Origin: an uncultured Spirochaetales bacterium | Lineage (GTDB): Bacteria > Myxococcota_A > UBA9160 > SMWR01 | Direction of reading: 5' to 3' | Length of the DNA stretch: 64,000 nt | NCBI GenBank assembly: GCA_964494795.1 | Contig: CAZBSV010000074.1 | Coordinates: forward strand, 1,053 to 65,052 | Shown here: positions 5,803 through 63,210 of the stretch, in pieces | Layout of the letters: every line of letters starts with the position of its first letter | Numbering within the stretch: position 1 is the stretch's first letter | Program-made: the position numbers and the translations under genes | Notes under the pieces: model-generated | Seen by the model: only the letters and a program-made list of their open reading frames with translations | The model's database searches: none | Told to the model about the DNA's origin: nothing

Positions 5803-5878
5803 TGGAGCGCGAGACGGGATTCGAACCCGCGACCCTCAGCTTGGGAAGCTGATGCTCTACCAACTGAGCTACTCGCGC
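5803..5878 (-). tRNA. tRNA-Gly (anticodon CCC)
   Basis: The minus strand reads GCGCGAGTAGCTCAGTTGGTAGAGCATCAGCTTCCCAAGCTGAGGGTCGCGGGTTCGAATCCCGTCTCGCGCTCCA. It folds as a cloverleaf with anticodon loop TTCCCAA and an encoded CCA. Confidence 0.95.
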
Positions 5879-14555: not shown

Positions 14556-17500
14556 TCAGGCATCGTCCCCATCCGGCACGACCACGCGCGGGGTCACGAA
14601 AACCAGCAACTCCTTGCGGCTCTCGCCGGTTTCGTCGCTTCGGAACAGTGCGCCGAGCAGCGGGATCTTGTGGAGATAGGGGACGCGCGATTGCCGCTCC
14701 GACTTGTCGATCACGTAGATTCCACCCAGGACGAGGGTTTGCCCGTCCTTGATGAGGGTCATCGTCTTGACCTGGTTCTTCGCGATGGCCGGCGAACCGG
14801 TCAGCGTGAAGACGCTGTCGTCGGGGGCGTTGCGCGTCACCGCGATCTTCATGATGATGCTCTTGTTCGCCGTGATGTGCGGTGTCACGTCGAGTTTCAG
14901 CACTGCGTCGACGAATTCGAGCTGTGCATCGCCGTTCTCGAACGTCTGGAACGGAATCGAGACGCCTTGCTCGATCGTCGCCTTGCTGTTGTCGAGCGTT
15001 ACGACTCGCGGACTCGAAATCACCTTGCCGTCGCCATTGACTTCCGCCGCCTGCAACTGCAGATCCACGTTGAATGTATCGTCGAGGATCCAGCCAGCGA
15101 GATTCAAGAATCCGTTCGGGTTCGCGGTGATCGGGTTGGCGATCAGGGCATCATTCCCCGCGGTGGGTGTGTAGAGCCAGTTGTCAGGCAACTTGTCCGG
15201 ATCTGCTCCCAGCGCCCACACGGTGCCGAATTCCCGAGAGAAATCGAGGCTTGCTTCCACGATCTTCGCCTCGATCATGACCTGCGGCGTTTGCGTATCG
15301 ATCGCCTTGATCAGCGCCGTTGCCTCAGCGATCACCGAAGGAATGTCCTTGATGATCAGCGTGCTGGTGCGCTCGTCCGTCGTGACGGTTCCGCGCTCCG
15401 GTGTCAGCAGTTGCTTGACCATGGCGGAAACCTGTTTCACGTCGGCAAAATTGACGGGCTGAAGCTTGACGATCAGGTCTTCGAGCCTTTCCTTCGAGCG
15501 GCGCTCCTGCAGGCGCATTTCCTCTTCCTGCTGGATTTCGACGCTCGGCGCGATCCGCAGAATGTTCCCGACGCGCATGAATCCGAGCCCCTTGGTGAGC
15601 AGGACGACATCGAGAGCCTGATCCCAGGGAACCTCGACCAGGCGTACCGTCACCTTGCCCTTCACGTCGTCGCCTGCGATCACGTTGAGTTCCGACACTT
15701 CAGCGATCAGACGCAAGACGTCCGCGATGTCCACGTCCTTGAAATCAAGTGAGATCCGTCGGCCGATGTATTGCTTTTCGGCCGACAAACCGCCCGGCGT
15801 CAACAAGTCGATCGCGGATTCGGGCTCGATCGAGGCGGGCATCGATTCCGAACTGGAATCGGAAGCCGGCTGCTGCGAAACATCGGAGTCAGCACTGTCC
15901 GGCGTCGAGGCAGGCACGCCCTCCAGCTGAGCCTGGGCGAGCATCGCCTGATCCTGGCTCATCGCAGGCGGCGCAACGGCCACCGCTCCGGTGCGTGGGA
16001 AATCAATCACCAGCAGTGAACCGCGGCGCGTAATCTCCGGTTGCAGATCCGCAGCGCGCTGCACGACCAACCGAACTTCGGGTTCTTCCATTTCGGGCTG
16101 ATCGAATGCGGTGACCAGCGAGATCGGACCACCGGGCTCAGGCGTAATGCGCACGGCGGCCTCAGGGTCCACCTTCGCTCCTCGGAGCGAGATGATCACC
16201 GTCTCGGACGTCGGCTCGAACACCGCGTAGTCGACCGGCGAGTCAGCCAAGACCACGATGCGATCTCGAGTGTCCTGATTGTCGAACTCGATCCCGTAGA
16301 TCGAAACGATCGCGCTGCCAGTCTCGGCGATAGCGGACTCGATTTGCTGCGTCTCCGGAGCCTCCATGGAATCGACAGGCGCGTCGATCGGATCCGCCCA
16401 GGCAGCTACTTCAGCCGGCGTCAAATCTGCTTCGACGACCGGTGTCACTGCAGCGACTTCGCCTGCCGCGATCTCGTCGGCCTCGGCACCCAGCTCATCG
16501 GGCGAGCTGCTCTGCGTCTCCGCATTGCCAATTTCTGCGATCTCGACGGGAGTTGCCATTGGAGCAGCCCCTCCCGTGGCTGCAACCAGAGCGGAGTCGA
16601 TCTCCGGCCCGCGGCCGAGGGCAATCACCAATCCAGCGGCGGTCGGCACGACCCTGCGACCATCGAAGGGCTGCGCGGTACTGCCGCCATCGACCACGAC
16701 GCGGATCTTGTCGACGTGTTCGCCCACGCGGACCCTCGACACCAGCTCCGAATCCAGTTCAATGGTCGAAAGATCCGCTGCATTCTCCAGTTCGAGAAGG
16801 TCTACCACCAGCCGCGACGGATCTTCGAGGGTGAAGGTCATCACGCTCGAGATCAATCCGTTCGCGCGAAGCTTCACGAGGACGCCCTCGCCGGCCTTCT
16901 CGACGTCCACGCCCGTGAAGCGGGTCGCGGGTGTCGGGTCTGCAGCCGCCTCCATCACATCTGCAGCCGCCTCCACCACATCTGCAGGCGCCTCCATCAC
17001 ATCTGCAGCCGCCTCCACCACGTCTGCAGGCGCCTCCATCACATCTGCAGGCGCCTCCGTCAAATCTGGGGACTGCTCAGCCGCGCTAGATGCCCAGGGA
17101 TCGAAGGCATCTGCCTGCGCGTGTTCCAGCGTCTCGGCACCCGAGTCGAGCGCCGCAGCGGCGAGATCGCCAGAAATTCGAATCTGCAATCCACCAGCAA
17201 CGAATTGCACCTCGTGCTCCGCGGGCGCGTCGAGGAAGACTTCTACGCGGGTCATTGCGTCGCTGGTTCCCGTCGAATAGGGCGCCACCAAGACCTTCGC
17301 GACGAGCCCGTCGCCTACGATCACGGGCTCGATCGCTCGATCGGCGCGCGCCGCCAGATCCACGATGATGCGATCCGGGTTCGGTTGCCCGAATGCCGTG
17401 AAGATCGGGTGATCCGGTCCGACCAGCGTAACGATGGTGTCACTTCCATCACGCTCGACCTGGATCTCCGAAATGTCCTGGTCCTGCGACGACTGAGCCG

Positions 17501-17603
17501 TCGTAGATCCGGTGCCAGCGCAGCCAACGGTTCCGCCGGCCAGCAAGGCCGCGAGCGCCGTCACCGCCGCAATGTGGAACCGACCGCTTCTAAATCCCAG
17601 CAT
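14556..17603 (-). CDS. pilQ: type IV pilus secretin PilQ with N-terminal AMIN-type domains
   Basis: The C-terminal secretin domain (...ATIEQGVSIPFQT...TLVLGGIY...RVPYLHKIPLLGALFR...ELLVFVTPRVV) is preceded by an STN/N0-like region and repeated AMIN-like modules. ATG 17603 with a GAGGGGGGG RBS inside the pilP end. Confidence 0.9.
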   Translation of the reverse strand: MLGFRSGRFHIAAVTALAALLAGGTVGCAGTGSTTAQSSQDQDISEIQVERDGSDTIVTLVGPDHPIFTAFGQPNPDRIIVDLAARADRAIEPVIVGDGLVAKVLVAPYSTGTSDAMTRVEVFLDAPAEHEVQFVAGGLQIRISGDLAAAALDSGAETLEHAQADAFDPWASSAAEQSPDLTEAPADVMEAPADVVEAAADVMEAPADVVEAAADVMEAAADPTPATRFTGVDVEKAGEGVLVKLRANGLISSVMTFTLEDPSRLVVDLLELENAADLSTIELDSELVSRVRVGEHVDKIRVVVDGGSTAQPFDGRRVVPTAAGLVIALGRGPEIDSALVAATGGAAPMATPVEIAEIGNAETQSSSPDELGAEADEIAAGEVAAVTPVVEADLTPAEVAAWADPIDAPVDSMEAPETQQIESAIAETGSAIVSIYGIEFDNQDTRDRIVVLADSPVDYAVFEPTSETVIISLRGAKVDPEAAVRITPEPGGPISLVTAFDQPEMEEPEVRLVVQRAADLQPEITRRGSLLVIDFPRTGAVAVAPPAMSQDQAMLAQAQLEGVPASTPDSADSDVSQQPASDSSSESMPASIEPESAIDLLTPGGLSAEKQYIGRRISLDFKDVDIADVLRLIAEVSELNVIAGDDVKGKVTVRLVEVPWDQALDVVLLTKGLGFMRVGNILRIAPSVEIQQEEEMRLQERRSKERLEDLIVKLQPVNFADVKQVSAMVKQLLTPERGTVTTDERTSTLIIKDIPSVIAEATALIKAIDTQTPQVMIEAKIVEASLDFSREFGTVWALGADPDKLPDNWLYTPTAGNDALIANPITANPNGFLNLAGWILDDTFNVDLQLQAAEVNGDGKVISSPRVVTLDNSKATIEQGVSIPFQTFENGDAQLEFVDAVLKLDVTPHITANKSIIMKIAVTRNAPDDSVFTLTGSPAIAKNQVKTMTLIKDGQTLVLGGIYVIDKSERQSRVPYLHKIPLLGALFRSDETGESRKELLVFVTPRVVVPDGDDA
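16939..17068 (-). repeat. 21-nt tandem repeat, about 6 copies, in-frame in pilQ (heptapeptide ADVxEAx)
   Basis: tctgcagccgcctccatcaca / tctgcagccgcctccaccaca / tctgcaggcgcctccatcaca ... encode APADVMEAPADVVEAAADVMEAPADVVEAAADVMEAAAD. Confidence 0.9.
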
Positions 17604-17608
17604 CGAAC

Positions 17609-18199
17609 TCACCCCCCCTCACTACGACGGATCCGCATTTCGATATCTTTTTTCGTCACGTTGCCCAGATAATCCACATAGGTCTCGTTGATGACGACCA
17701 AGTTGTCATCAATCGTTGTTACCATCCCTTCGTTCTTTCCGATTCGCGTGCCCTTCGCGACGATGTAACTATGACCAGCCGGGTCCTCTACCAACGCCCT
17801 CGCGGATCCCGTATTCCAGACCACCGCAACGATCGATAGTTGGCTGACGTCGAATTGCTCCAGCGGTCCGCCAGCCACTTCTTGGCTCGAGATTTCCTTC
17901 CTCTCCCACTCGAACGACCGGAACGGATCCCGCAGGCCCTCCTTGTCGTAGAGCATTCCGGGCCCGGTTCCGGCGAAGCTGCCATCGATCGCCGGTGCGA
18001 CGGGAACCGCGGCGACTTGACTCGGCTGCACGGCGGGCGCCGCCGCGGCTTCACCCTTCTTCGCCTTCCGCTCGGCTACGCGCGCGTTTAGCTTGGCGCG
18101 CTCCTGTTGAAACTCGGCCTGGGTCGGCTGGTTGGCCTCTTCTTTGCAACCGACCAGCGCCAACAATCCGATCGAGATCGCGATGGCTGCAATTTTCAC
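17609..18199 (-). CDS. pilP: type IV pilus assembly lipoprotein PilP
   Basis: GTG 18199 with GGAGGGG RBS. Lipobox LLALVGC. C-terminal PilP domain (LRDPF...LEQFDVSQLSIVAVVWNTGSARALVEDPAGHSYIVAKGTRIGKNEG). Confidence 0.75.
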   Translation of the reverse strand: MKIAAIAISIGLLALVGCKEEANQPTQAEFQQERAKLNARVAERKAKKGEAAAAPAVQPSQVAAVPVAPAIDGSFAGTGPGMLYDKEGLRDPFRSFEWERKEISSQEVAGGPLEQFDVSQLSIVAVVWNTGSARALVEDPAGHSYIVAKGTRIGKNEGMVTTIDDNLVVINETYVDYLGNVTKKDIEMRIRRSEGG

Positions 18200-25627: not shown

Positions 25628-26839
25628 TCAGCCGATGGTGTCCGCAATCTTGAAGATCGGCAGGTACATCGCGATCAGCATCGCACCAACGGTGCCTCCG
25701 AGGCCGACCATCATGATGGGCTCCAGCATCGCGGTAAGCGCATCGACCGCAGCGTCCACTTCTTCGTCGTAGAAGTCCGCGATCTTTCCGAGCATCGTCT
25801 CCATCGCTCCGGTTTCTTCGCCCACCGCGATCATCTGAACGACCATTCCAGGGAACACCTTCGACTCGGCTAGCGGCTCAGCGATCGTGCGCCCCTCTGA
25901 AATCGCCGTCCGCACCTTTGCGAGTGCTTCTTCGATTACCACGTTACCCGCGGTCCTCGAGACGATGTCCAATCCATCGAGGATCGGAACACCACTCGCG
26001 ATCATCGTTCCAAGCGTTCTGGTGAATCGCGCGACGGCCACCTTTCGAATCAGGGGGCCAAATACCGGCGCTTTGAGAAAGAGGCTGTCCGTCGCGCGGC
26101 GAAAATTCCGAGATCGCCTCCGCGCCTGGCCGAACGCAATTCCCACCGCCACTACACCCACGAGAAAGATTCCGAGCCACTCTTGCATGAAGTGGCTCAA
26201 GTTCACCACCACTTGCGTCGGCCCGGGAAGTTCACCACCGAAGTCCGAGAACATCTTCTCGAAGGTTGGAATCACCTTCACGAGCAGCAACCCGACGACG
26301 CCGACCGCCACCACGAGGACCGTGGTCGGATAGACCATCGCGCCCTTCACCTTTCGCGCCAGCGCATCGGCTTTTTCGAGGTAGACCGCCAGCCGATTCA
26401 GGATCGTGTCGAGAATACCTCCGATTTCACCCGCCGCGACCAGATTGCAATAAAGGGAATCGAACGGCTTGGGGTGCTTGGAAAGCGCGTCGGCGAACGT
26501 CGATCCCTGCTCGACATCCGAGCGGGTTTCATCGATCGCCAACTTGAACGTCGGGTTATCCTGCTGGTCGCCGAGAATCTTCAGACATTGAACCAGCGGA
26601 AGACCCGCGTCGATCATCGTCGCGAACTGCCGCGTGAAGATCACGAGTTCCTTGGTCTTGATCTTCTTCTTGAGAAAACCAAGATATTCCGAAATGTCCT
26701 TCGCTTTTGCGGCGACCTTGACCGGCGTGAGCATCTGACCGCGAAGCTGCGCCTCGACGGCTTCTTTGCTCACCGCCTCCATGGTGCCCGCTTTCACGGT
26801 TCCTTGTCGCGTCTTACCCTTCCAGGTATAGACCGGCAT
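25628..26839 (-). CDS. pilC: type IV pilus platform protein PilC
   Basis: Two T2SSF repeats (FTRQFATMIDAGLPLVQCL ... FTRTLGTMIASGVPILDGL). GGAGGGGG RBS. Confidence 0.9.
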   Translation of the reverse strand: MPVYTWKGKTRQGTVKAGTMEAVSKEAVEAQLRGQMLTPVKVAAKAKDISEYLGFLKKKIKTKELVIFTRQFATMIDAGLPLVQCLKILGDQQDNPTFKLAIDETRSDVEQGSTFADALSKHPKPFDSLYCNLVAAGEIGGILDTILNRLAVYLEKADALARKVKGAMVYPTTVLVVAVGVVGLLLVKVIPTFEKMFSDFGGELPGPTQVVVNLSHFMQEWLGIFLVGVVAVGIAFGQARRRSRNFRRATDSLFLKAPVFGPLIRKVAVARFTRTLGTMIASGVPILDGLDIVSRTAGNVVIEEALAKVRTAISEGRTIAEPLAESKVFPGMVVQMIAVGEETGAMETMLGKIADFYDEEVDAAVDALTAMLEPIMMVGLGGTVGAMLIAMYLPIFKIADTIG

Positions 26840-35802: not shown

Positions 35803-37140
35803 CTAATCGGAGCGCGCGCGGCGCACGCGAAGCCGCAGCCCTTCGACCGCGGTGACCTCCACGGACTCGCCGCTCTCGATCTGCTGGTCGGCCTTGGCCG
35901 ACCAGTACTCGCCCCGAATGAAGACCTTGCCATCCGGGCACAGCGGCGTCCGCGCCTCGCCGATCAGGCCGAGCAGCTCGTCGACACCCGTCGTCTGCGC
36001 CCGAAAAACGCTTCGCGTCACGATCAGCACGATGGTCCCCGCACAGATCGCGAAGCCCGCCACCACGGGTACCAAGAACGTCCAGAATGGCAGCGTGAGA
36101 TCGCTCAGCTCCGGCATGTCGAATATCATCGAACCGCCAACGAGCATGCAGATGACTCCCAGCGTGAACAGCACGCCGAAGGACGTGACGAAAATCTCCA
36201 GCACGAGCAGGATCATCCCCACGAGCATCACCAGCAGGCCGATCCACGAGAACGGCAGGATCTGCAGTGCGAATCCGGCGACCACCAGGCAAAGCGCCCC
36301 GAGGATTCCCGGCACCAGCATCCCGGGCTGTTGAAACTCGATGTAGAGACCCAGCATTCCGGCCATCACGAGTAGCACCGCGATTTCCGGGCTGGCGAGG
36401 AAATTGAAGAATCTCGTCATCCCCGTCATCTCGATACTGCGAACATCCGCGGCTTCCGTTTCGAGGACGACCAGCGTCCCGTCGCCGATCTCGACCTCCA
36501 TTCCCTGGACTTGTTTGAGGAGATCCGCCCGATCCGAAGCCACCAGGTCGATCACTCCGAGTTTCAGCGCCTCGTCCTGGGCGATCGCTTCGGCCTCGCG
36601 CACCGCGCTGATCGCCCACTCGACGTTGCGTTTTCGCTCGGTGGCGATCGATTCCATGAACGCCATGGTCATCTTCTCGGCCTTCTCCATTCCCACGTCA
36701 CTGCGTTCGTCGTCCTCTTCGCGCTTCCCTCCGCCGCCCGATACGCTGATTGGAGACGCTGCGCCGATGCTGGTTCCGGGCGCCATCGCGGCGATGTGGC
36801 CCGCGAGCGTGATGAACGTCCCGGCAGAAGCCGCCCACGCGCCCCTCGGCGCGACGAACACGATGATCGGCACATTCGCGTTGAGCATCGCCTGGATGAT
36901 GTCCTTGGTCGACGCGAGCAGCCCGCCTGGCGTATCGAGTTCGATCAGGAGCGCTTCGGCACCGTCGGATTCACTCTGCCGAATCGCGTCCTGGATGTAG
37001 TCGGATGACGCCGGATTGATCGAGCCATTGATCGCAATCAAGTTGACGTGGCCCGCCGACGCGTTGCCCGCGAGCAGCGCGAGTGAACCCAGTGCAACGG
37101 CGAGAATGCGAATCGAGCGCGCCGACCCGAACGACATCAT
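35803..37140 (-). CDS. NfeD-family membrane-bound ClpP-class serine protease
   Basis: Signal peptide, ClpP-like domain (LIELDTPGGLL...AASAGTFITLAGHIAAMAPGTSIGAASP), 4-5 TM segments, C-terminal NfeD OB-fold (KVFIRGEYWSAKA). ATGA overlap with coaBC. Confidence 0.8.
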   Translation of the reverse strand: MMSFGSARSIRILAVALGSLALLAGNASAGHVNLIAINGSINPASSDYIQDAIRQSESDGAEALLIELDTPGGLLASTKDIIQAMLNANVPIIVFVAPRGAWAASAGTFITLAGHIAAMAPGTSIGAASPISVSGGGGKREEDDERSDVGMEKAEKMTMAFMESIATERKRNVEWAISAVREAEAIAQDEALKLGVIDLVASDRADLLKQVQGMEVEIGDGTLVVLETEAADVRSIEMTGMTRFFNFLASPEIAVLLVMAGMLGLYIEFQQPGMLVPGILGALCLVVAGFALQILPFSWIGLLVMLVGMILLVLEIFVTSFGVLFTLGVICMLVGGSMIFDMPELSDLTLPFWTFLVPVVAGFAICAGTIVLIVTRSVFRAQTTGVDELLGLIGEARTPLCPDGKVFIRGEYWSAKADQQIESGESVEVTAVEGLRLRVRRARSD

Positions 37141-38441
37141 TTGCTGCCTTTTCGCAACTTGACGATCCGGTCGAGCAGTTGCGCGGCGACCGCGCTCTTG
37201 GCAAGCGACGGCAGCTCTTCGATCTGCCCGTCCGGCCAGACGAAGACGGCCGCGTTGGAATCCGAATCGAAGACCGCCGCCTTTTCGCTGATGTCGTTCG
37301 CGACCAGAAGGTCGCAGCCCTTTCGCGCGAGCTTCCTGCTCGCGGCGGCGATCAGGTCGTGGCTCTCGGCCGCAAACCCGACCAGCGTGCGCTCGCCCTT
37401 GATCTCGCAGAGCTCTGCAAGGATGTCGGGATTGCGGACCAACTCGAGCGTCAGGCCCGCCGAATCCGCGAGGTCTTCTTTCTTGATCTTGCGTTCCGAG
37501 TATTGGGCGGGTCGAAAATCGGCCACGGCTGCGGCCATCACGGCGATGCTCGACGCCCCAAACTCCGATAGCACGGCATCGCGCATCTCACTCGCCGTCC
37601 GGACATCCAGCCGGCGCACACCCGCTGGCGTAGTCAGCGCAGTCGGTGCCGCGACGAGAACCACTTCGGCGCCGCGCCGCGCCGCCTCGGCGGCGACCGC
37701 AAATCCCATCTTGCCGGAAGATCGATTGCCCAGATAGCGCACCGCGTCGATCGGCTCGCGGGTCCCGCCTGCGCTGACCAGAATCCGCTCGCCTGCGAGA
37801 TCGCGGGTTCCGAGCAACAAGCTGGCTTCCGCGGCGATCGCCTCAGGCGGCGACATCCGGCCGGCGCCTTCCCAGCCGCACGCGAGTTCTCCGCTTTCCG
37901 GGCCAATCGAGCGGACTCCGCGCTCTCGCAGAACTTCCATGTTGGCACGCGTGGCCGGATGCTCCCACATGTTCACGTTCATCGCGGGTGCGACGAGAAT
38001 CGGCGCGCGCGTCGCGAGCAACACCGCCGACACCAGATCGTCGGCGAGCCCGCAGCGAAGCTTCGCGAGACTGTTGGCGGTGGCCGGCGCGAGGATTGCG
38101 AGTTCCGCCCAGTCCGCGAGCGAGATATGGTCGATCTCCCCTCCTTGGGAGGGGTCGAAGCGATCATTCTGGAAGGGGTCGAAGCGATCATTCTGGTAGG
38201 GGTCGAAGAGATCATTCTGGGAGGGGTCGAAGCGATCATTCTGGGAGGGGTCGAAGAGATCCTTGCGCACTGGGTAACCGGTCAGCGTCTGGACCACCAG
38301 CGGGGTGACGAACTGCTGGGCGTTTTCGGTCATCGCGCAGCGCACGCAAGCGCCAGCCCGACGCAGGATCCGGATCAACTCCGGAACCTTGTACGCCGCG
38401 ATACCGCCGCTGACCGCGACCAGGACACGCCGCTGTTCCAT
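37137..38441 (-). CDS. coaBC: bifunctional phosphopantothenoylcysteine decarboxylase / synthetase, carrying a tandem-repeat insertion
   Basis: VLVAVSGGIAAYK, APATANSLAKL, PAMNVNMW, ACGWEGAGRM, SAGGTREPID and GNRSSGKMG motifs. ATG 38441. Confidence 0.9.
   Translation of the reverse strand: MEQRRVLVAVSGGIAAYKVPELIRILRRAGACVRCAMTENAQQFVTPLVVQTLTGYPVRKDLFDPSQNDRFDPSQNDLFDPYQNDRFDPFQNDRFDPSQGGEIDHISLADWAELAILAPATANSLAKLRCGLADDLVSAVLLATRAPILVAPAMNVNMWEHPATRANMEVLRERGVRSIGPESGELACGWEGAGRMSPPEAIAAEASLLLGTRDLAGERILVSAGGTREPIDAVRYLGNRSSGKMGFAVAAEAARRGAEVVLVAAPTALTTPAGVRRLDVRTASEMRDAVLSEFGASSIAVMAAAVADFRPAQYSERKIKKEDLADSAGLTLELVRNPDILAELCEIKGERTLVGFAAESHDLIAAASRKLARKGCDLLVANDISEKAAVFDSDSNAAVFVWPDGQIEELPSLAKSAVAAQLLDRIVKLRKGSK
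38151..38264 (-). repeat. 24-nt tandem repeat, about 5 copies, in-frame in coaBC (octapeptide D[LR]FDPxQN)
   Basis: ggggtcgaagcgatcattctgg(a/t/g)a units at 38151, 38175, 38199, 38223 and 38247. They encode DLFDPSQN DRFDPSQN DLFDPYQN DRFDPFQN DRFDPSQG. Confidence 0.9.
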
Positions 38442-38570
38442 CGCTTGGCCTCGGGAATTTCCTTTGTTGGCTGCGAGGTTAACGGAACCCGGGCGAAGCA
38501 ACAACGAAGCTTCGGGCCCGCGTGGGTTGGCGTCAGCGCGCCGCTCGATCGAGCCTCTCCGCCGCGCCGC

Positions 38571-40405: not shown

Positions 40406-40441
40406 GAGGGCCCGGCCGCCAAACGCCGGGCCCTCGTTTCT
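40406..40441 (+). terminator. GC-rich stem-loop after the HTH gene (probable terminator)
   Basis: GAGGGCCCGGC-cgccaaac-GCCGGGCCCTC is a perfect 11-bp stem followed by GTTTCT. The T-tract is weak. Confidence 0.55.
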
Positions 40442-40516
40442 GGGACCGATCCCCTCGTTTCTGGGACCGATCCCGTCGTTTCTGGGACCGATCCCGTCGT
40501 TTCTGGGACCGATCCC
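40433..40516. repeat. 21-nt intergenic tandem repeat, 4 copies (tcgtttctgggaccgatccc+1)
   Basis: TTCTGGG recurs at 40438, 40459, 40480 and 40501 (exact 21-nt phase). The array starts inside the terminator tail and ends in the small palindrome CGATCCC-atctaatg-GGGATCG. Confidence 0.9.
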
Positions 40517-43423: not shown

Positions 43424-44725
43424 GTGCTCAACGCGATATTCATCGCGCTGCTCGTAGTTGCGGTCGTGACCGCGGCCGGCAACGGCAGGATGCCGGCCGT
43501 CAACCAGGCGCTGTTCGACTCCGCGCGCGACGCCGTCAACATCGCGCTCGGGCTGATCGGAACGATGGCGCTGTGGCTCGGATTCATGCGCGTGCTGCGC
43601 GACGCGGGCGTGATGGCGAACATCGCGCGCGCGCTCGCTCCCGTGATGCGCTGGCTATTCCCCGCGATTCCGCCTGATCACCCCGCGATCAGCGCGATGA
43701 TCCTGAACATGTCCGCGAACGTGCTCGGACTCGGCAACGCCGCAACCCCGTTCGGCCTCAAGGCGATGCGCGAGCTGCAGAAATTGAACACCAACAAGGC
43801 CGTCGCGACGGATTCGATGGCGCTGTTCCTCGCGATCAACACGTCGGGGCTCGCGGTCATCCCGACTGGCGTGATGGCGGTCCGCGCGAGCCTCGGCTCG
43901 GCGAACCCGGGCGGGATCTTCCTGCCCTCGATTCTCGCGACCCTGTGCTCGACGATCACCGCGATCGTCTTCGCCAAATTTCTCGCGCGCCGCAAGATAT
44001 TCTCACTCGACCGCTACGCGTCGATCTACCCCACGGATGCGAGCGAACCCGAACCGGACGTTGACGACATCGAGCTGCCGCAGGCTCCCGAGAGCCGGTC
44101 GTTCTCGCGCTGGGGCGTTGCGCTGATGCTGGCCGTCGCCGCCTGGGTGGTCGCGATGATCGTCCGCGACCTCGCGGTCGCCGAGGGCAACACGCGGGAA
44201 GCGATGCTCGCGATCTTCAACAGCTGGCTGATGCCGCTGCTCGCGGTCGGGATCGCCCTCTACGCGCTGGGCGCGCGGGTCAAGGTCTACGAATCGCTGG
44301 TCGAGGGCGCGCGCGAGGGTTTCCAGATCGTGATCATGATCATTCCCTTCCTGGTCGCGATCCTCGTCGCGATCGGCGTGTTTCGCGCTTCGGGAGCGCT
44401 CGATGCGGTGCTCGCGGCCGTTTCGCCCGTGACATCCCTGATCGGATTTCCCGCGGAAGCGCTCCCAATGGCGATCATCCGCCCGCTTTCCGCCCAGGGA
44501 GCGCTCGGCGTCATGACGGAAACGATGAAGATCTACGGTCCGGATTCCTTCATCGGCTACCTGGTTTGCGTGATTTCCGGCAGCACCGAGACCACCTTCT
44601 ACGTGCTCGCGCTCTACTGCGGGAGCATTCGGCTCCGCGCTACCCGACACACGGTGTTTGCGTGCGTCGCCGCGGATATCGGCGGCGCGCTCGCCTCGCT
44701 GTTCTGGTGCCGGGTATTCTTCTGA
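43424..44725 (+). CDS. nucleoside-recognition-domain membrane protein (fused SpmA/SpmB-like)
   Basis: GTG 43424. Multi-TM protein with the motif NMSANVLGLGNAATPFGLKAM and a second Gate-like half. Confidence 0.7.
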   Translation: MLNAIFIALLVVAVVTAAGNGRMPAVNQALFDSARDAVNIALGLIGTMALWLGFMRVLRDAGVMANIARALAPVMRWLFPAIPPDHPAISAMILNMSANVLGLGNAATPFGLKAMRELQKLNTNKAVATDSMALFLAINTSGLAVIPTGVMAVRASLGSANPGGIFLPSILATLCSTITAIVFAKFLARRKIFSLDRYASIYPTDASEPEPDVDDIELPQAPESRSFSRWGVALMLAVAAWVVAMIVRDLAVAEGNTREAMLAIFNSWLMPLLAVGIALYALGARVKVYESLVEGAREGFQIVIMIIPFLVAILVAIGVFRASGALDAVLAAVSPVTSLIGFPAEALPMAIIRPLSAQGALGVMTETMKIYGPDSFIGYLVCVISGSTETTFYVLALYCGSIRLRATRHTVFACVAADIGGALASLFWCRVFF

Positions 44726-44780
44726 TCCGCGGCGCGGGGTCGGTGACGCCCCCAACACCCGCGCAAGCCAGGAAGCCCGC

Positions 44781-45866
44781 GTGAACCAGAATCGATCCAG
44801 ACAGCAGAGCGAGGCCCTCGTCGCAGAAGTCGTCCGCGCGCAGCTCGGGGCCGCGGTCAGCCGATTCAGCTGGTTGCGCGGCGCACTCGGCTTTCGAAGT
44901 TTCTCGAGGATCTGGCTCGAAGCATCTGAAACAACAAGACAATCTCTCCCTGAAACGCTGATCGCGCGGATCGAGGCCGCGGACGATCCGAGCCGCAGGC
45001 CCGCGGGCGTTCTCGCCGAGCCCGCCCTCGAGCCGATCCGCGCACTGCTCGAATCCGAGGGCCTTCCGGTGCCGCGGCGCTTCGGCGCGGATCCCGCGCG
45101 CGGCATCGAACTGCTCGAGGACCTAGGCGAGCGCTCGCTCGCGGATTTTGCGCGCAGCGCGGATGCGCGAGAACTCGACAGCCTCTACCGCGAAGCCTGC
45201 GAACTCCCGCCGCGGCTCCAGCGGATCGAAGCGCGCCCGGGCGTCGCAAACTTCGCGCGCCAGCTCGACGACGCCCACTTGCGCTACAAGGCCGAGCGCT
45301 TCGCGCGCTGGAGTCTCCACCGCGATCGCGCGGCGAGCCCCGAGGAGGCCACGGTCGTGCGCGAAGCTTTCGAGCGGATCGCGCGAGAGATCCGCAGCGC
45401 GCCGCGGCGGCTCGCGCATCGGGACCTGCAAAGCGCGAATCTCCAACTCGTCGAAACGCCTCGAGGTTCAGCTGCCAAGATGCCGTTTCGACTCGTGATG
45501 ATCGATCTCCAAGGTGCGTTCATGGCACCGCCCGAATACGATCTGGTCTGCCTGCTGCGGGATTCCTACGTCGAGCTCACTGAAGCCGCAGTGGCCGCGC
45601 ATCTCGCGCGCGTGCGATCCGCGCTGCCGGACTGCCCGGACGCGGAGATCTTTCAGCTGCGCTTCGACCTTCTCACCCTCAGCCGCAAGGCGAAGGACCA
45701 CGCGCTGTTTCGCGCGGTCGCGCGCGAGCGCGGGGACGAGCGCTATCTCCAGTACCTGCCAGCGACGCGCCGCTATCTCCAGACAGCGGCCGCGCGCGTT
45801 GCATCAAAATACCCAGAATACGCTGACTTGAATCATCTGATTCAAGCGATTCCGGAGCTTCCATGA
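44781..45866 (+). CDS. amgK: aminoglycoside-phosphotransferase-fold kinase, AmgK-like (anomeric MurNAc/GlcNAc kinase)
   Basis: GTG 44781 with AGGAAG RBS. APH catalytic region LAHRDLQSANL...MIDLQGAFMAPPEYDLVCLLRDSY. It is 4-nt-overlapped with a MurU-like gene. The symbol is tentative. Confidence 0.6.
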   Translation: MNQNRSRQQSEALVAEVVRAQLGAAVSRFSWLRGALGFRSFSRIWLEASETTRQSLPETLIARIEAADDPSRRPAGVLAEPALEPIRALLESEGLPVPRRFGADPARGIELLEDLGERSLADFARSADARELDSLYREACELPPRLQRIEARPGVANFARQLDDAHLRYKAERFARWSLHRDRAASPEEATVVREAFERIAREIRSAPRRLAHRDLQSANLQLVETPRGSAAKMPFRLVMIDLQGAFMAPPEYDLVCLLRDSYVELTEAAVAAHLARVRSALPDCPDAEIFQLRFDLLTLSRKAKDHALFRAVARERGDERYLQYLPATRRYLQTAAARVASKYPEYADLNHLIQAIPELP

Positions 45867-46783
45867 GAGCCATGATCGTCGCAGCCGGGCTCGGAACCCG
45901 ACTGCGGCCGCTCAGCGGGCTGCGGCCGAAGCCCGCGCTGCCGGTGCGCGGCATCCCGCTGATCGCCTACACGCTGGCACTGCTCGCCCGCCACGGCGTG
46001 ACGCAAGTCGTCGTCAACGCCCACCACCTGCCGGAGATCCTGATGGACGCGGCCCGGCGCCATTGCCCGGCCGGCATCGAGCTGCGCTTTTCGATTGAAA
46101 CCGAGCTGCTCGACACCGGAGGCGGCATCCGCCGCGTCGCGGATTTTCTGCGCGAGAGCGACCCGTGCCTGATCGTCGCGGGCGACATGCTCTTTGACGC
46201 GGACCTCTCGGCGCTGGTCGCCAAACAGCGCGAGCGCAGGGACGCGTGGACGCTCCTGCTGCGCGAGGGCGACCCGCGCGAGCCAAGATTCGGCAGCCTC
46301 GGCGTCGACGCGGAGGGCCGCCTGCGCCGCATCGGTCAGCGCTTCGACCTCGGCGGCGAGATGCGCGCGGGCATCTACAGCTGGGTGAACGTCGTGGCGG
46401 CGCGGGCCTTCGATTCGCTCCCCGCGCGCGAAATCTTCAGCCACCTCGACCATTGGATTGCGCCGCAGCTCGCGTCCGGCGCTGCGGACATCCGCGGCGA
46501 AATCCTCGCGGCAAAAGCGTTCTGCTGGGAACCCGTGGGTACGCCCGCCGAGTATCTCAAAGTCAATCTCGAGCCAACGCACCTTTCCTACCAGCAGGCG
46601 ATCGCTGGCGCGCAGCGCGCGGGCGCGCGGATCGTAGGAGACGTCGTGATCGGCGCGAATGCGACGCTCGGCTCCGGTGTGCGGCTGCAGCGCGCGGTCG
46701 TCTGGGACGGCGAGCGGGTTCCCGACGGGCTGGAAGCGAGCAACGGCGTCTTCGCCGGGGGAGTCTTTCACTCGGTCGATTGA
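45863..46783 (+). CDS. murU: sugar-1-phosphate nucleotidyltransferase, MurU-like
   Basis: MIVAAGLGTRLRPLSGLRPKPALPV, VVVNAHH, LDTGGGI, VAGDMLFD. The pairing with the AmgK-like kinase supports the call, but the symbol is tentative. Confidence 0.65.
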   Translation: MRAMIVAAGLGTRLRPLSGLRPKPALPVRGIPLIAYTLALLARHGVTQVVVNAHHLPEILMDAARRHCPAGIELRFSIETELLDTGGGIRRVADFLRESDPCLIVAGDMLFDADLSALVAKQRERRDAWTLLLREGDPREPRFGSLGVDAEGRLRRIGQRFDLGGEMRAGIYSWVNVVAARAFDSLPAREIFSHLDHWIAPQLASGAADIRGEILAAKAFCWEPVGTPAEYLKVNLEPTHLSYQQAIAGAQRAGARIVGDVVIGANATLGSGVRLQRAVVWDGERVPDGLEASNGVFAGGVFHSVD

Positions 46784-46796
46784 ACGCCTCTGCGAA

Positions 46797-46930
46797 GGTT
46801 GGTTGCACGGCTTCGCTGACGGAAGTTGGTTGAACGGGTTCGCTGACGGAAGTTGGTTGAACGGGTTCGCTGACGGAAGTTGGTTGAACGGGTTCGCTGA
46901 CGGAGGTTGGTTGCTTGGGTTCGCTGACGG
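46797..46930. repeat. 27-nt intergenic tandem repeat, 5 copies
   Basis: GCTGACGG recurs at 46815, 46842, 46869, 46896 and 46923. The unit is gttggttgaacgggttcgctgacggaa. It starts 14 nt after the murU-like stop. Confidence 0.9.
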
Positions 46931-46978
46931 GGGGCCATCGGGCTCAAACACCATGTCGCCCGATGGCCCCCCGTCAGC
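46923..46978. other. perfect 21-bp inverted repeat (hairpin) with 14-nt loop
   Basis: gctgacggggggccatcgggc - tcaaacaccatgtc - gcccgatggccccccgtcagc. The 5' arm begins with the last copy of the 27-nt repeat. Confidence 0.85.
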
Positions 46979-47207
46979 GCCCCGAGTGACGTTTTGAAGG
47001 ATCGAGCCGCCGATTGCAGGGGTTCTTTTTCACGCGCGGGCGGCAAATTTGCTTTGGGGTCGGGACGCGAGAGCTGGGAGCGACATGCGGTTGGAGCGAA
47101 TGCGCTTGCGCCCTGACCCCCAGAGCAGAGCCGATGTGCTGAATCCGCGTGCGGGGCAGCGAGCGGTTGCGCGCCGGTAGCTGGGGAAAGAGCTGGCGGT
47201 CCTAGCA

Positions 47208-47267
47208 GCTCGAACCCGAAACGGGTTCGAGGTGCGCCGCAAGGGAAGCGAAGCTTCCCCCGCTAGC
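47208..47267. repeat. 60-nt double-hairpin extragenic element, copy 2 (inverted relative to copy 1)
   Basis: gctcgaacccgaaacgggttcgaggtgcgccgcaagggaagcgaagcttcccccgctagc. Its terminal gctagc contains the anmK stop codon (TAG, 47263-47265). Confidence 0.9.
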
Positions 47268-48411
47268 GATCGATCTTTCCTGGTGAGATCTCACCCAACA
47301 CGACCGCGTGACGCGCCCCGGTACATTGGGGCAGGTGATTCGGGATTCCAAGCAGCGCGTGGCGACCCATCAACGCGAACGCCATCGCCTCCGCGGCGCG
47401 AGCCGGTACGCCGACCGCGTCGAACGGGGCGATCGGCACGCCCGGCAGTGCCGCGCCGAGCGCGTCCATCAGCGCGGGATTTTCGACGCCTCCGCCGCCG
47501 ACGAGCATGCGATCGACGCTCCCGTCCAGAAAATCCCGCTTTGCGCGCGCGATCGATTCTGCGGTAAAGGCCACGAGCGTCGCGACGAGATCGTCATCGG
47601 CGCGGCCTTCGCGGCGCGATTGCCGCGCGAGCGCTTCGGCCTGCTCGAGCCCGTAGCGCTCGCGACCGGTCGATTTCGGCGGACTGCGGCGCAAGAAATC
47701 GTCGTCGAGCAAGCGCGCCAGCCAATCCTGACGAACGCGCCCGCGACGCGCGCGCACGCCACCGCGATCCAGCGCCTCCCGACCGTCCGAGAAGAAGGAA
47801 ACCGCGCCGTCGATCAGCGCGTTGGCGGGGCCGACATCGAAAGCGATCACGTCTTGCGCCCGGCCACCGCGCGGCAGCCAGCTGAGGTTTGCGATGCCGC
47901 CGAGATTGAGCACGAGGCGACTCTCGTCGGGGTCCGAGAGCGCGGCAAAATGGAAGAACGGCGCGAGCGGTGCGCCCTCGCCACCTGCCGCGATGTCCCG
48001 CGGGCGAAAATCCGCGACGGTCGTGCAACCCGTCCTCTCCGCGATCAGCGACGGGTCCCCGATCTGCAGCGAGGCCCGCAGCTCGGGATGGTGGGCGACG
48101 GTCTGACCGTGCGATGCGATCGCGTCGATCTGCGAGAGCGGGATCTGAGCGCCGTCGGCGAGCGCGATTGCCGACTCCGCGAAGCGCTCCGCGAGCAGCA
48201 CGTCGAGGGCCGCGAGCTCGCTCAGCGCGCTGCCCGGCGGCAGGCGCCCCGCCGCGAGCGCGTGGATGCGGCGCTGGAGCGACTCGGGAAATGGATCCTG
48301 GCGAAACGCGACGAGCGCAAACGGCCTCGGCGCAGTCCCCTCCGGCCACTCGACGAGCGCCGCATCCACCCCATCCGCGGAGGTTCCCGACATCAATCCG
48401 ATCACGCGCAT
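47263..48411 (-). CDS. anmK: anhydro-N-acetylmuramic acid kinase
   Basis: MRVIGLMSGTSADGVDAALVEW N-terminus and NLGGIANLS motif. Typical length of 382 aa. Confidence 0.85.
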   Translation of the reverse strand: MRVIGLMSGTSADGVDAALVEWPEGTAPRPFALVAFRQDPFPESLQRRIHALAAGRLPPGSALSELAALDVLLAERFAESAIALADGAQIPLSQIDAIASHGQTVAHHPELRASLQIGDPSLIAERTGCTTVADFRPRDIAAGGEGAPLAPFFHFAALSDPDESRLVLNLGGIANLSWLPRGGRAQDVIAFDVGPANALIDGAVSFFSDGREALDRGGVRARRGRVRQDWLARLLDDDFLRRSPPKSTGRERYGLEQAEALARQSRREGRADDDLVATLVAFTAESIARAKRDFLDGSVDRMLVGGGGVENPALMDALGAALPGVPIAPFDAVGVPARAAEAMAFALMGRHALLGIPNHLPQCTGARHAVVLGEISPGKIDR

Positions 48412-56420: not shown

Positions 56421-56500
56421 TTGGCTGGACTCGGTTCACCCTGGTCAGCCTCGGATCGCCCTGGTCAGCCTCGGATCGCCCTGGTCAGCCTCGGATCACC
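56421..56500. repeat. 20-nt tandem repeat, 3 exact-phase copies plus 1 degenerate
   Basis: ctggtcagcctcggatcgcc at 56441, 56461 and 56481, preceded by a degenerate copy. It lies in the 209-nt spacer between the activator gene stop (which it overlaps) and the kinase gene start. Confidence 0.85.
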
Positions 56501-57920
56501 GTGGCTGGGTGCGAATCTTCGAGGCGATGTCGTGCTTGGCGAGTTTGCGGTAGAAGGTGCTGCGCCCAATTCCAAGCATATTCGCAGCCGCGCTGGCGTC
56601 CCCCGCGCATTCCGCCAGCGCGCGCTCGAGCGCGCATCTCTCGTAGGCGTCCAGGGAAATCGGTAGGCTCGTCGGAGCGAGCGCCGAAACGGCTCGCGTC
56701 GCGGGTCGATTGATCGCGAGATCCGAGACGCGCAGACGCGGCCCGCGCGCGAGCGCCATCGCCGACTCGATGATGTTCTCGAGCTCGCGAACGTTGCCCG
56801 GCCAATCGGATGCCATCAGAAGTTCGAGCGCTCTCTCTTCGATGCCCTCGACGCGCGAATTCTCATCTGCGTGCTTGCGGAGAAAATGCTGCACGAGCAG
56901 CGGAATGTCCTCGCGCCGCTCCCGAAGCGGAGGGATCACGATCCGAACCACGTTGAGTCGATAGAAGAGATCCGTTCGAAACCGACCTTCCTCCACCATC
57001 GTCGCCAGATCGCGATGGGTCGCCGAAATCACGCGAATGTCGACGGGGACCGCACTCGCCGCGCCCACGGGCCGAACCTCTTTCTGCTGCAGGGCTCGCA
57101 GCAACTTCGCCTGGACGGCGGGCGGGATCTCGCCGATCTCGTCGAGAAAAAGGGTCCCGCGGTTCGCGATCCGGAACAGGCCTGGCGCACCAACCGCACC
57201 GGTGAATGCACCCTTTTCATGCCCGAACAACTCGCTCTCGATGATGCTCTCCGGCAGCGCCCCGCAGTCGACGGGAACGAAGTCGCCTCCCGATCGCGGG
57301 CTCGCGGCGTGAATCCCGCAGGCCACCAACTCTTTGCCGGTTCCACTCTCCCCCTGCAGCAGAACATGACTCTCGTTGTGCCGGAGGCTGTGAATCTTGC
57401 TCGCAAGAGTACGCATCGCCGGCGAATTGCCGACGAGCGCCGGGATCGAGGCGCGCGCGCGCAGCTCCGTTTCGAGTTCCCGGTTGCGGCGGACCAACCT
57501 GCGCCGCTCGATCGCCTTGCGCACGGTCGTCTGGATCCGATGCACGTCATCGAACGGCTTTTCGAGATAGTCGAAGGCGCCTTTTCGGATGCAACCGACC
57601 GCGCTCTCGATACTGCCGTGACCGGTCATGACGATCACTTCGATTTCGGGGCGCGCGCTCTTGATCTGCTCGAGCAGTGCGAGCCCGCTGACCGGTCCGA
57701 GCAAAAGGTCCACCAGGGCGACGTCGAGGCGCGGATCGGAGAGATGCGGCGTCGCCTCGCTCACGGACTGCGCGAGCGCGGTTTCGTAGCCCGCGCGCTC
57801 GAGAACGCGCTTGAGCGACTGGAGCAACAGCGGCTCGTCGTCGACCAACAGAACGAAGCCCGAGGCTTCGGGCGCCGAGAAGCGGCGTGCGTCGGGCGAT
57901 TCCGCGCTCGCAGGTGTCAT
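56496..57920 (-). CDS. sigma-54-dependent NtrC-family response regulator
   Basis: REC (VALVDLLLG), [21 protein letters not shown], Fis HTH (AANMLGIGRSTFYRKL). ATG 57920 is preferred over TTG 58001. Confidence 0.85.
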   Translation of the reverse strand: MTPASAESPDARRFSAPEASGFVLLVDDEPLLLQSLKRVLERAGYETALAQSVSEATPHLSDPRLDVALVDLLLGPVSGLALLEQIKSARPEIEVIVMTGHGSIESAVGCIRKGAFDYLEKPFDDVHRIQTTVRKAIERRRLVRRNRELETELRARASIPALVGNSPAMRTLASKIHSLRHNESHVLLQGESGTGKELVACGIHAASPRSGGDFVPVDCGALPESIIESELFGHEKGAFTGAVGAPGLFRIANRGTLFLDEIGEIPPAVQAKLLRALQQKEVRPVGAASAVPVDIRVISATHRDLATMVEEGRFRTDLFYRLNVVRIVIPPLRERREDIPLLVQHFLRKHADENSRVEGIEERALELLMASDWPGNVRELENIIESAMALARGPRLRVSDLAINRPATRAVSALAPTSLPISLDAYERCALERALAECAGDASAAANMLGIGRSTFYRKLAKHDIASKIRTQPR

Positions 57921-61451: not shown

Positions 61452-61698
61452 GCTCGCTGAGGGCCCCTCGCAGGATTTCACGGCTCCGCCGGTCGACCGA
61501 AGCTGCCGGAGGCGGAATACTCTCCCCCGGGTTCATCGGAAGGAGGCGAGACCGGCTTGACCCGCAGCCGGCTGAACGCAGCGCGACACGAGCAAAAAAC
61601 CATTCAATTTCAGGGAATCCGCCGTCGATACTACATCTCGAGGATGACTTGCCCGAGCAACGCCGTCCTGCGCCGCGAGCGCACCCTTGGGGGGGACC

Positions 61699-63210
61699 AT
61701 GCCGAAGACGATTTTATTGGCCGACGACAGCGTCACGATCCAGAAAGTCGTAGGCATAAGCTTTGCCAGCGAGGATGCGATCGTCGTGACCGTCGACAAC
61801 GGTGACGATGCGATCACCAAGACTCGCGAAATCCGTCCCGACATCGTCCTCGCAGACGTCGTGATGCCCGGCAAAAACGGCTACGAGGTCTGCCAAGCGA
61901 TCACAAACGACCCGGATCTCGCGCACATTCCGGTGCTGCTGTTGACCGGAACCTTCGAGGCCTTCGACGAAGCACGCGCGCGCGAGGTGGGTTCGGCGGG
62001 CCACATCGCAAAACCCTTCGAAGCGTCAGCCCTGGTCGCCGAGGTTCGGCGTTTGACGGACTCGGCGTCCGCCAAAGCGTCCGCCAAAGCGTCCGCCAAG
62101 GCGCCCGCCAAGGCGCCCGCTTCGCCGCAAACCGCGCCCACAAGGCCGGCCGCCCAGCAAGCTGTCGCGGTCGATGCATTCGACTTTTTCGACGACGAAA
62201 TCGGAGGGGCCGAGATTCCGCCCGCCGAACTCGCCGACGAAATGCTGGGCGACTTCAAATTCCAGGGCAGCGAGAGCGCAATCGCATTCGACGCTGACGT
62301 CCGCGGCGAATCTGCGGACTCGCGCGAGCGATTCGTGCCCATCACGCCCGATGTGGCCCGTGCGGTCGAGGCCGTCGAAGTCCGCCGCGTGTCCTCCTAT
62401 GCCGACGCCGCCGAGACCAGCGCTCCGTTCGCGACGTCGCGCGCAAGCGCGGCGGCGCCGGTATTCGACGACAGCCTCGACGATTCACTGTCTCCCGATG
62501 CGAGCCGCAGTGGCGATCGACCGTTCGACTTCGCACTCGCCGGCGAAATCGCGGATGCGACGGATCCGCTCGCCGAATTCGACCTGATGCCGCCCGTGGA
62601 CGCAGACGACCTCGCGCATGCCACAGTGATCGACCCACTCGGCGCTTCCGGCTACGACGTGTCGTCCTCGGACCTCGGACCGCCAATGCGCGACACCGCA
62701 CCGGATCTCGTGAGCGTCGCGCGCGCCCGCCAGCACGAGGCCGAGTTGACCGTGTTGGCAGCCGACGTCCCGCTCGAAGCGGAACCGATCTTCGACGACG
62801 ACTCATTCGGATTCGGGTCACCCGCGAACGACCTCACCCGCGTCGTGCGCGAAGATCCCGTGTACGCGAACTTTGCGACCCCGCGGCCGCCCGACGTCGC
62901 GGTCGAAGAGGACGAGCCCGAGAGCTGGCCTTCCCGGCGCCGCAGCGTGACCGCGCAAACTCCGCGCGCCGACCGCAAGGCAGACTCCGCGGCTGCGCTG
63001 ATCGCGAAGATCGGACCCGAATTGCGTCAGCAACTCCACGACACGCTCGAGAAGATCGCCTGGGAGTCGTTCGGCGACCTCACCGAAGCGATCGTCCGGC
63101 AGTCGGTGGAGCGCGTCGAATCGATCGCCTGGGAGGTCATCCCGCGGATGGCCGAAACCCTGATCGAGGAAGAAATCCGCAGAATGAAGAACGAGCCCGA
63201 AGACGCGTGA
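61699..63210 (+). CDS. response regulator with receiver domain, about 330 aa of acidic/Ala-Pro-rich linker and a conserved-looking C-terminal helical domain (RomR-like architecture)
   Basis: REC (ILLADDS, IVLADVVMPGKNG, LLTG, IAKPF). Low-complexity middle. C-terminus LHDTLEKIAWESFGDLTEAIVRQSVERVESIAWEVIPRMAETLIEEEIRRMK. ATG 61699 after a G-run RBS. Confidence 0.75.
   Translation: MPKTILLADDSVTIQKVVGISFASEDAIVVTVDNGDDAITKTREIRPDIVLADVVMPGKNGYEVCQAITNDPDLAHIPVLLLTGTFEAFDEARAREVGSAGHIAKPFEASALVAEVRRLTDSASAKASAKASAKAPAKAPASPQTAPTRPAAQQAVAVDAFDFFDDEIGGAEIPPAELADEMLGDFKFQGSESAIAFDADVRGESADSRERFVPITPDVARAVEAVEVRRVSSYADAAETSAPFATSRASAAAPVFDDSLDDSLSPDASRSGDRPFDFALAGEIADATDPLAEFDLMPPVDADDLAHATVIDPLGASGYDVSSSDLGPPMRDTAPDLVSVARARQHEAELTVLAADVPLEAEPIFDDDSFGFGSPANDLTRVVREDPVYANFATPRPPDVAVEEDEPESWPSRRRSVTAQTPRADRKADSAAALIAKIGPELRQQLHDTLEKIAWESFGDLTEAIVRQSVERVESIAWEVIPRMAETLIEEEIRRMKNEPEDA
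62065..62120 (+). repeat. 12-nt tandem repeat, about 4.5 copies, in-frame (SAKA/PAKA)
   Basis: gcgtccgccaaa x3 then gcgcccgccaag x1-2. They encode SAKASAKASAKAPAKAPA just after the receiver domain. Confidence 0.85.

Follow-up and report, generated by a model that had tools for sequence, protein, structure and literature searches.

The five 27-nt repeats downstream of a murU-like gene in an uncultured Myxococcota bacterium are probably a lineage-specific minisatellite, built by slippage or unequal exchange on the base of an older hairpin (H1), and do not form a structural switch. The repeats, H1 and a second hairpin (H2) lie together in a 64-kb window, the window being the whole stretch of 64,000 nucleotides that was analysed.

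Organization of the murU-anmK spacer and of the array

The array and the hairpins occupy a non-coding spacer of 479 nt between the convergent 3' ends of a murU-like gene and anmK:

44658-45866, + strand: amgK-like gene for an APH-family kinase, preceding the murU-like gene
45863-46783, + strand: murU-like gene for an NDP-sugar pyrophosphorylase (Pfam NTP_transferase, 5e-24), with a TGA stop codon at 46781-46783
46798-46932, + strand: tandem array of five head-to-tail 27-nt units, consensus GTTGGTTGAACGGGTTCGCTGACGGAA
47263-48411, - strand: anmK, for anhydro-N-acetylmuramic acid kinase (Pfam AnmK, 9.5e-101), convergent with murU

An APH kinase and an NTP_transferase gene facing AnmK fit the amgK-murU / anmK arrangement, and AmgK-MurU and AnmK are the set of the MurNAc recycling route (PMC5371407). 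The domains encoded by the neighboring genes are Gate, APH, NTP_transferase, AnmK and glycosyltransferase, with no transposase, RAYT or typical recombinase among them. The spacer has a G+C content of about 63-64% and a + strand GC skew of about +0.2 throughout. A promoter and terminator scan made no call within it. It matches no Rfam family either: a tRNA at 5806-5878 is the only hit above the gathering threshold in the 64-kb window, and a lenient scan of 46700-47350 returned just sub-threshold microRNA-precursor look-alikes on the hairpin.

The array begins 14 nt past the murU stop codon, the position of which is the same in orthologues of 80-84% identity. Tandem Repeats Finder reported it at 46798-46930 (period 27, 4.9 copies, 94% matches, score 224), and listing the units one by one gave starts at 46798, 46825, 46852, 46879 and 46906. 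This bears out an earlier note on this DNA, which had described five 27-nt repeats running into a hairpin. Units 2 and 3 are identical; compared with them, one base differs in unit 4, two in unit 1 and five in unit 5. Identical inner units, over which a perfect period-27 run extends for 80 nt (three units, 46825-46904), flanked by diverged edge units, the first of which retains the TGCACGG found in relatives, are a pattern typical of slippage or unequal exchange. The motif TTCGCTGACGG is present in all five units and has no other exact copy in 64 kb. The 27-mer is expected 0.00 times in shuffled sequences, so the array is not a product of chance, and a search of the 64-kb window for dispersed copies of the 27-mer, which the earlier note had suggested, found none. 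Outside the window, 35 metagenome sequences matched a degenerate unit pattern; all are single-copy with no MurU or AnmK nearby, and they were therefore treated as chance. A degenerate "zeroth" unit over the murU stop codon was also rejected, since its agreement at 10 of 12 positions is equalled in 93 of 2000 shuffles and 226 of 2983 genomic windows. The array is not a CRISPR: the units are contiguous, a 27-nt unit recurring at 27-nt spacing, with no unique spacers.

Although the array can be read through without a stop codon in four of six frames, the region is non-coding. Codon-usage scores were at most 0.06 in every frame, compared to 0.2-0.4 for most of the listed Pfam-supported training genes. 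An antisense ORF with PSANPFNQL repeats, which the earlier note had judged non-coding, scored -0.27 (against +0.2 to +0.4 for most listed training genes), in agreement with that judgement. No Pfam domain was found in any frame over the array, and a joined query of all four open-frame peptides had no match at E <= 0.01 among 5.8 billion proteins. Translation as part of a conserved protein, the outcome that the same note had named as refuting its own reading, was thus looked for, and neither a coding signal nor homologues appeared. The existence of orthologous loci without any array likewise argues against coding.

Relatives of the spacer

We compared the spacer with those of ten further lineages sharing 80-84% MurU identity. 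The best MurU matches among GTDB representatives are from uncultured Myxococcota (82% and 81% identity) and, apart from the identical protein, the protein collection contained no MurU of more than 84% identity, while about 40 additional MurU relatives in it fall at 77-84%. The nine distinct relatives with a single unit have the flanks of the window, consisting of the stop codon plus AACGCCTCTGCG on the left and GACGGG.GGCC.TCGGGCTC on the right. The content of the spacers is as follows (L numbers designate relative loci):

Window: five units; H1 present; H2 present
L069: one unit; H1 present, with a 26/27-bp stem; H2 present
L070: one unit; H1 present; H2 present
L068: one unit; H1 present but imperfect; H2 absent
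L072: one unit; H1 absent; H2 present
L001 and L071: one unit; only the 5' arm and the start of the loop of H1; H2 absent; the deletion ends at an AACCCCA microhomology
L076-78: one unit; only the first few nucleotides of the H1 5' arm; only the 3' half of H2; deletion at a GGGG microhomology
L079-81: one unit, diverged; H1 and H2 absent; 75-nt spacer
L002: unit unrecognizable; H1 and H2 absent; spacer of about 30 nt
L073/74: no unit; H1 absent; H2 present; about 1.3 kb of unrelated DNA straight after the stop codon

The unit occurs five times in the window but once in nine distinct relatives (L001, L068-L072, L076-78, L079-81). The single copy is hence ancestral, and the five-copy array therefore arose in the lineage of the window. 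Among the roles that had been suggested for the array, the comparative data favor a slippage hotspot; a protein-binding array is disfavored by a unit that is single-copy in relatives and flanked by convergent 3' ends. Through deletions, more than half of the ten lineages compared lack H1, and more than half lack H2, so that any function they have can be argued to be dispensable. A reading of the hairpin as lineage-specific, drawn from L001 and L002 alone, was overturned by the presence of H1 in L068, L069 and L070.

The spacer appears to be a hotspot for insertion and deletion. The insert of about 1.3 kb in L073 (2913-4224) and L074 (1896-3207) starts AT-rich and has two ORFs, 169 and 108 aa long, without a Pfam match; it takes the place of the unit and H1 and leaves H2 intact. 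More distantly, L027 (7737-7832, 30 nt x 3.2) and L028 (7783-7911, 35 nt x 3.7) have tandem duplications in the convergent spacer by anmK. By eye, their repeat unit covers the end of the adjacent gene, with its last codons and stop codon, and the two duplications are independent events at the same junction. In relatives of 68% MurU identity or less (L003-L031), a gene for an MBL-fold hydrolase (Lactamase_B, 3e-18; for example, 6957-7691 of L003) lies between murU and anmK, and neither H1 nor H2 was found in relatives at this distance. The idea that the spacer is a decayed MBL-fold gene was dropped, as tblastn and blastn detected no trace of it in the spacers of the window or of the close relatives; nor is the gene found elsewhere in the 64-kb window.

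H1 is predicted to pair with the fifth unit and not with the others

The array runs directly into H1, the 5' arm of which starts inside unit 5:

46922-46979, + strand: hairpin H1, with a perfect 22-bp stem (46922-46943 with 46958-46979) and a 14-nt loop containing the conserved CCATGTCGCCC
46910-46990, + strand: extended H1, with an additional 10-bp lower stem (46910-46919 with 46981-46990), G-U pairs included

A perfect 21-bp inverted repeat with a 14-nt loop had been described here; the perfect pairing and the loop were confirmed, and the stem proved to be 22 bp long. The arms of H1 are 100% complementary and form the longest perfect short-range inverted repeat in the 64-kb window, with 0.01 occurrences of the arm expected in shuffled sequences. 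H1 starts 139 nt past the murU stop codon, a distance that falls to 31 nt when the array is collapsed. Its calculated energy is -52.9 kcal/mol as RNA and -33.3 kcal/mol as DNA, and the minimum free energy of extended H1 (46906-46995) is -69.3 kcal/mol. Folding of both strands, carried out on a 221-nt region as had been advised, gave z-scores of -5.6 (+ strand) and -4.7 (- strand). The lower stem is formed only by the variant fifth unit, which has GTTGCTTGGG where the others have GTTGAACGGG, together with the 3' flank CCCGAGTGAC. That pairing is perfect at 22 of 22 positions and that unit 5 specifically lengthens the stem could be a hint of selection.

The earlier note had further proposed that the 3' arm of H1 can pair with any of the upstream copies, giving a ladder of mutually exclusive structures. 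Since the array was built on the basal part of the hairpin arm, every unit does hold a 9-nt partial partner for the 3' arm. We computed folds of 46784-47000 in which the core of the 3' arm (9 bp, CCGTCAGCG) was constrained to pair with one upstream CGCTGACGG at a time. The minimum energy was then between -94.1 and -92.0 kcal/mol, compared to -111.3 kcal/mol without the constraint, so each alternative costs 17.2-19.3 kcal/mol, corresponding to a probability of about 1e-12. In the unconstrained ensemble, the upstream pairings had probabilities of 3e-13 to 3e-12, compared to 0.998 for native H1. The 3' arm is complementary to the upstream units over 9-12 nt (12 nt, including one mismatch, for unit 4) versus 22 nt, plus the 10-bp lower extension, for unit 5. 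These energetics contradict the ladder; the structure is predicted to be locked, with no meaningful set of alternatives.

The same energetics speak against a terminator with variable geometry, another of the roles suggested, and there is no U-tract beside the stem on either strand: the stem is followed by CCCCGAGTGACG on the + strand and by AACCCAAGCAAC on the - strand, and a U-tract is likewise absent in L068, L069 and L070. By the canonical criterion, a terminator role of H1 is therefore unsupported. A canonical terminator made of a hairpin and the conserved T-run found 46 nt downstream (47026-47030) was considered as well and set aside, as no conserved hairpin precedes the T-run. The conserved ATG in the H1 loop was examined as a possible start of a leader peptide; the resulting peptides differ in length and have unrelated C-termini in four genomes, and the leader peptide was therefore rejected.

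H1 and H2 form an inverted pair

About 70 nt downstream of H1 lies a second hairpin, the loop centers of the two being about 130 nt apart:

47026-47037, + strand: motif TTTTTCACGCGC, located between the two hairpins; the same in the window, L069 and L070, with CCTTTCACGCGC in L072
47048-47129, + strand: hairpin H2, with an imperfect long stem (-46.5 kcal/mol) and a loop, GCGACATG..GGAGCGA, that is the reverse complement of the H1 loop

H1 can be aligned, stem and loop included, to reverse-complemented H2 along some 60-80 nt, and a central core GCTC....CAT.TCGC.C is common to all eight sequences of the H1/H2 alignment. H2 is an inverted paralogue of H1. In a four-sequence alignment, H1 shows compensatory changes in four stem pairs (5 of the 26 pairs that RNAalifold predicted over the alignment); for example, CT/AG in the window is GC/GC in L069, and a G-C pair in the window is A-U in L070. 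H2 shows them in 10 of 25 pairs (window, L069, L070 and L072). When H1 and the reverse complement of H2 were aligned jointly, 88.8% of cells were paired, compared to 70.0 ± 2.5% in shuffles, and 12 of 19 pairs covaried, a number reached by none of 500 shuffles. As a control, sliding the partner by 1-3 columns reduced pairing to 41-58%. By these comparisons, H1 is a shared feature older than the array and not a private accident. Compensatory changes in palindromes can, however, come from template switching during replication, without selection on an RNA (PMC8794818, PMC8604942), and the covariation is therefore no proof of RNA function.

As H1 and H2 are inverted copies of each other, the loop of one is complementary to that of the other on a single strand. 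Read by eye, the loops match at 15 of 18 positions in the window, 16 of 18 in L069 and 17 of 17 in L070, and the predicted loop-loop duplexes have energies of -23.6, -33.0 and -38.6 kcal/mol, respectively, which none of 1000 shuffles reached. In L069 and L070, the pairing within the genome is stronger than any pairing between genomes, and in L070 an unusual variant, AGGC-CC, is carried by both hairpins. On the + strand, H2 contains 11 G-U cells versus 2 A-C cells, and the region 46975-47275 folds with z = -4.1 on the + strand versus z = -2.2 on the - strand. The G-U excess and the better fold mildly favor a + strand RNA, the + strand being also G+T-rich by composition. Between the hairpins, no conserved hairpin precedes TTTTTCACGCGC, the consensus fold of this segment being just -3.2 kcal/mol. 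A sigma-54-like GG-N10-GC at 47039-47052, recognized by eye in three of four genomes, was discarded as a promoter candidate, as it would start transcription inside the 5' arm of H2. A covariance model built on the element (R1) found only the copies in murU-anmK spacers in 463 kb (the 64-kb window plus 42 relative loci), and the H1/H2 loop motif occurs elsewhere in the window at chance level.

These properties raise the question of whether H1, the intervening segment and H2 make up a functional structured RNA, that is, a 3'UTR element or small RNA of the peptidoglycan-recycling operon in which the loops kiss or form a pseudoknot and the array modulates the 5' part. We regard this as unlikely, although both hairpins covary, complementarity of the loops holds in each of the three genomes with an H1 and an H2, the + strand bias in G-U pairs and folding points the same way and the element is specific to its locus, not dispersed. 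Each hairpin is represented by three to five sequences only, and most relatives have lost H1 or H2 by deletion (L001, L002, L068, L071, L072, L076, L079), which means that the two-hairpin element is not essential. Loop complementarity is moreover automatic for inverted duplicates homogenized by template switching or gene conversion (PMC8604942), and the loop pair of the window is the weakest of the three. The element also matches no Rfam family and has no evident promoter or terminator.

Other repeats in the window

The spacer contains one more structured element, of which a second copy is found in the window:

47204-47262, + strand: 59-nt double-hairpin element, abutting and slightly overlapping the anmK stop codon
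25565-25623, - strand: second copy of the 59-nt element (93% identical), just past the stop codon of a - strand ORF (25628-26839)

Its hairpins are CTCGAACCCG-RAA-CGGGTTCGAG followed by GGGAAGC-GAA-GCTTCCC. The element is absent from loci L001-L067 and may be a dispersed 3'-end element of this genome.

The company of this dispersed element bears on another reading, in which H1 and H2 are themselves copies of a mobile or selfish palindromic repeat (REP/BIME-like, or the two ends of a MITE) and the array is a by-product of insertion or processing. The alignment of H1 with the reverse complement of H2, stems included, would suit such an origin, as would the patchy presence and absence of the modules among the spacers of relatives and a 9-nt direct repeat, GTGGGT(T/C)GC, that flanks H1 in L069. 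But the direct repeat is found in L069 only, model R1 found no copy outside the murU-anmK spacer in 463 kb, and the rest of the window contains the loop motif no more often than expected by chance. In addition, the endpoints of the deletions in relatives fall at microhomologies within the element and not at its ends, and none of the neighboring genes encodes a transposase or RAYT. We thus consider a mobile origin very unlikely.

The 64-kb window contains 11 tandem arrays with periods of 11-27 nt, several of them in frame inside conserved genes; this genome is prone to short tandem duplication. A 24-nt x 4.8 array (38146-38261) is in frame inside a CoaBC gene (Flavoprotein + DFP; 37137-38504, - strand), in which the Flavoprotein match takes up 201 residues for 156 profile positions; the repeat therefore resembles an insertion of about 40 residues into a housekeeping enzyme. 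Arrays are also found inside the ORFs for a TPR protein (7387-11028; arrays at 7612-7709 with period 21, 8307-8374 with period 18 and 9400-9567 with 21 x 8), a secretin (14556-17612; 16939-17068, 21 x 6.2) and a response regulator (61687-63210; 62065-62120, 12 x 4.7). The periods of these are multiples of three, and the ORFs are supported by Pfam. Two further arrays are apparently non-coding. One (40431-40516, 21 nt x 4.1, 98% identity) lies upstream of an SLT-domain gene and is directly preceded by a 7-bp hairpin (GCCCGGC..GCCGGGC); the other (56430-56504, 20 nt x 3.8), between histidine kinase and sigma-54 activator genes, overlaps the last few codons of the latter.

The array beside murU is not distinguishable from the other arrays of this genome, which counts against its being a functional cis element, either a periodic protein-binding array or, on the - strand, a rut-like tract for Rho loading that would halt anmK read-through before it runs antisense into murU. 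On the - strand the array is C-rich, G-poor and predicted to be largely unpaired, and it sits where convergent transcripts would collide. However, the unit is single-copy in relatives, so that a function requiring several units would have to be entirely new; successive units, spaced at 27 nt, do not keep phase with the DNA helix; and no partner gene is present. A function of this kind is highly improbable. Just as improbable is an assembly artefact, with the repeat collapsed or expanded in a metagenome-assembled contig: the source appears to be one contig of an uncultured Myxococcota bacterium and the perfect 80-nt run over the three inner units would invite such an error, but the array is only 135 nt long with distinguishable edge units, and ten other arrays were assembled on the same contig, some in frame inside conserved genes, so the assembler evidently handles such repeats.

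Discussion

VNTR loci are tandem repeats of 10-100 nt, the copy number of which is changed by slipped-strand mispairing. The array resembles bacterial minisatellites of this type in being head-to-tail and non-coding, in its homogeneous inner and diverged edge units and in its copy number, which is five here and one in related genomes. It differs from them in sitting on the basal part of a hairpin arm and in that the difference in copy number is one between relatives of 80-84% MurU identity. The array is thus a VNTR-like expansion beside an extragenic palindrome, a feature of an already known kind, and not a switch.

In the minisatellite scenario that we prefer, the amplified 27-nt segment would consist of the 18 nt to the left of H1 and the first 9 nt of the H1 5' arm, and we infer that it was multiplied into head-to-tail copies, most likely through slippage during replication or through unequal exchange. 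The 3' arm, in RNA as in single-stranded DNA, would then pair essentially only with the adjacent fifth unit, leaving the four additional units as a 108-nt extension of the spacer that is predicted to be unpaired or weakly self-paired. Such an array would be neutral or nearly so. If H1 has any role, it would most likely be that of a highly stable stem-loop within the 3' UTR of a presumed amgK-murU transcript, where it might block 3' exonucleases or keep transcription from running on into the convergent anmK. A useful but dispensable H1 would explain both its upkeep and its frequent loss.

H1 has features of several known structures. Like intrinsic terminators and 3' stem-loops that stabilize transcripts, it is a very stable GC-rich stem-loop soon after a stop codon and between convergent genes and, being a perfect palindrome, it folds on both strands. 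Unlike intrinsic terminators, it has no U-tract, and its stem (22 bp, or 32 bp when extended) and 14-nt loop are much larger than is typical; no other gene end in the 64 kb is comparable. "I-shaped" hairpins without a U-tract have been proposed for high-GC bacteria. REPs, which stabilize upstream mRNA, and BIMEs are similar to the H1/H2 pair in that imperfect palindromic units alternate in orientation in a spacer at gene 3' ends, but H1 and H2 are longer than the classical 20-40 nt REPs, have no dispersed copies in 463 kb, of which 64 kb were from the source genome, and have no RAYT nearby. Nor do they qualify as a MITE: they are inverted, but a flanking direct repeat is found in L069 only and there are no other copies in 463 kb. 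A mechanistic parallel is with the hairpins created or maintained by template switching, or quasipalindrome correction (PMC8794818, PMC7202029, PMC8604942), with which the pair shares perfect arms, clustered compensatory differences and inverted loops that evolve in concert. Each of these, including the concerted evolution of inverted copies, is also a known product of template switching (PMC8794818, PMC8604942, PMC7202029). Template switching is nevertheless a mutational mechanism and not a functional class, and accounts for the perfection of the hairpins but not for their use.

The H1/H2 pair is unannotated and narrowly distributed, and is modestly the more interesting part of the feature. 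An unlikely but more novel reading takes H1 and H2 as the halves of an undescribed, locus-specific element of a Myxococcota sub-clade. The element could be a structured 3'UTR or small RNA with a 15-17-bp loop-loop helix, or else a DNA inversion switch using the 17-18-nt inverted repeats in the loops; either of these the array would modify, as a recent and possibly phase-variable addition. As for an inverton, the 17-18-nt inverted repeats flank about 120 nt, and this segment has the same orientation in all three genomes that carry both hairpins.

On the present description, the array is a routine product of slippage with little biological weight. It is a possible marker for strain typing and an example of a switch-like repeat that is locked into a single fold. 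If transcribed and functional, the H1/H2 pair would represent a novel cis-acting or small RNA with a link to cell-wall recycling; otherwise, it would illustrate how template switching keeps palindromes perfect and thereby mimics RNA covariation.
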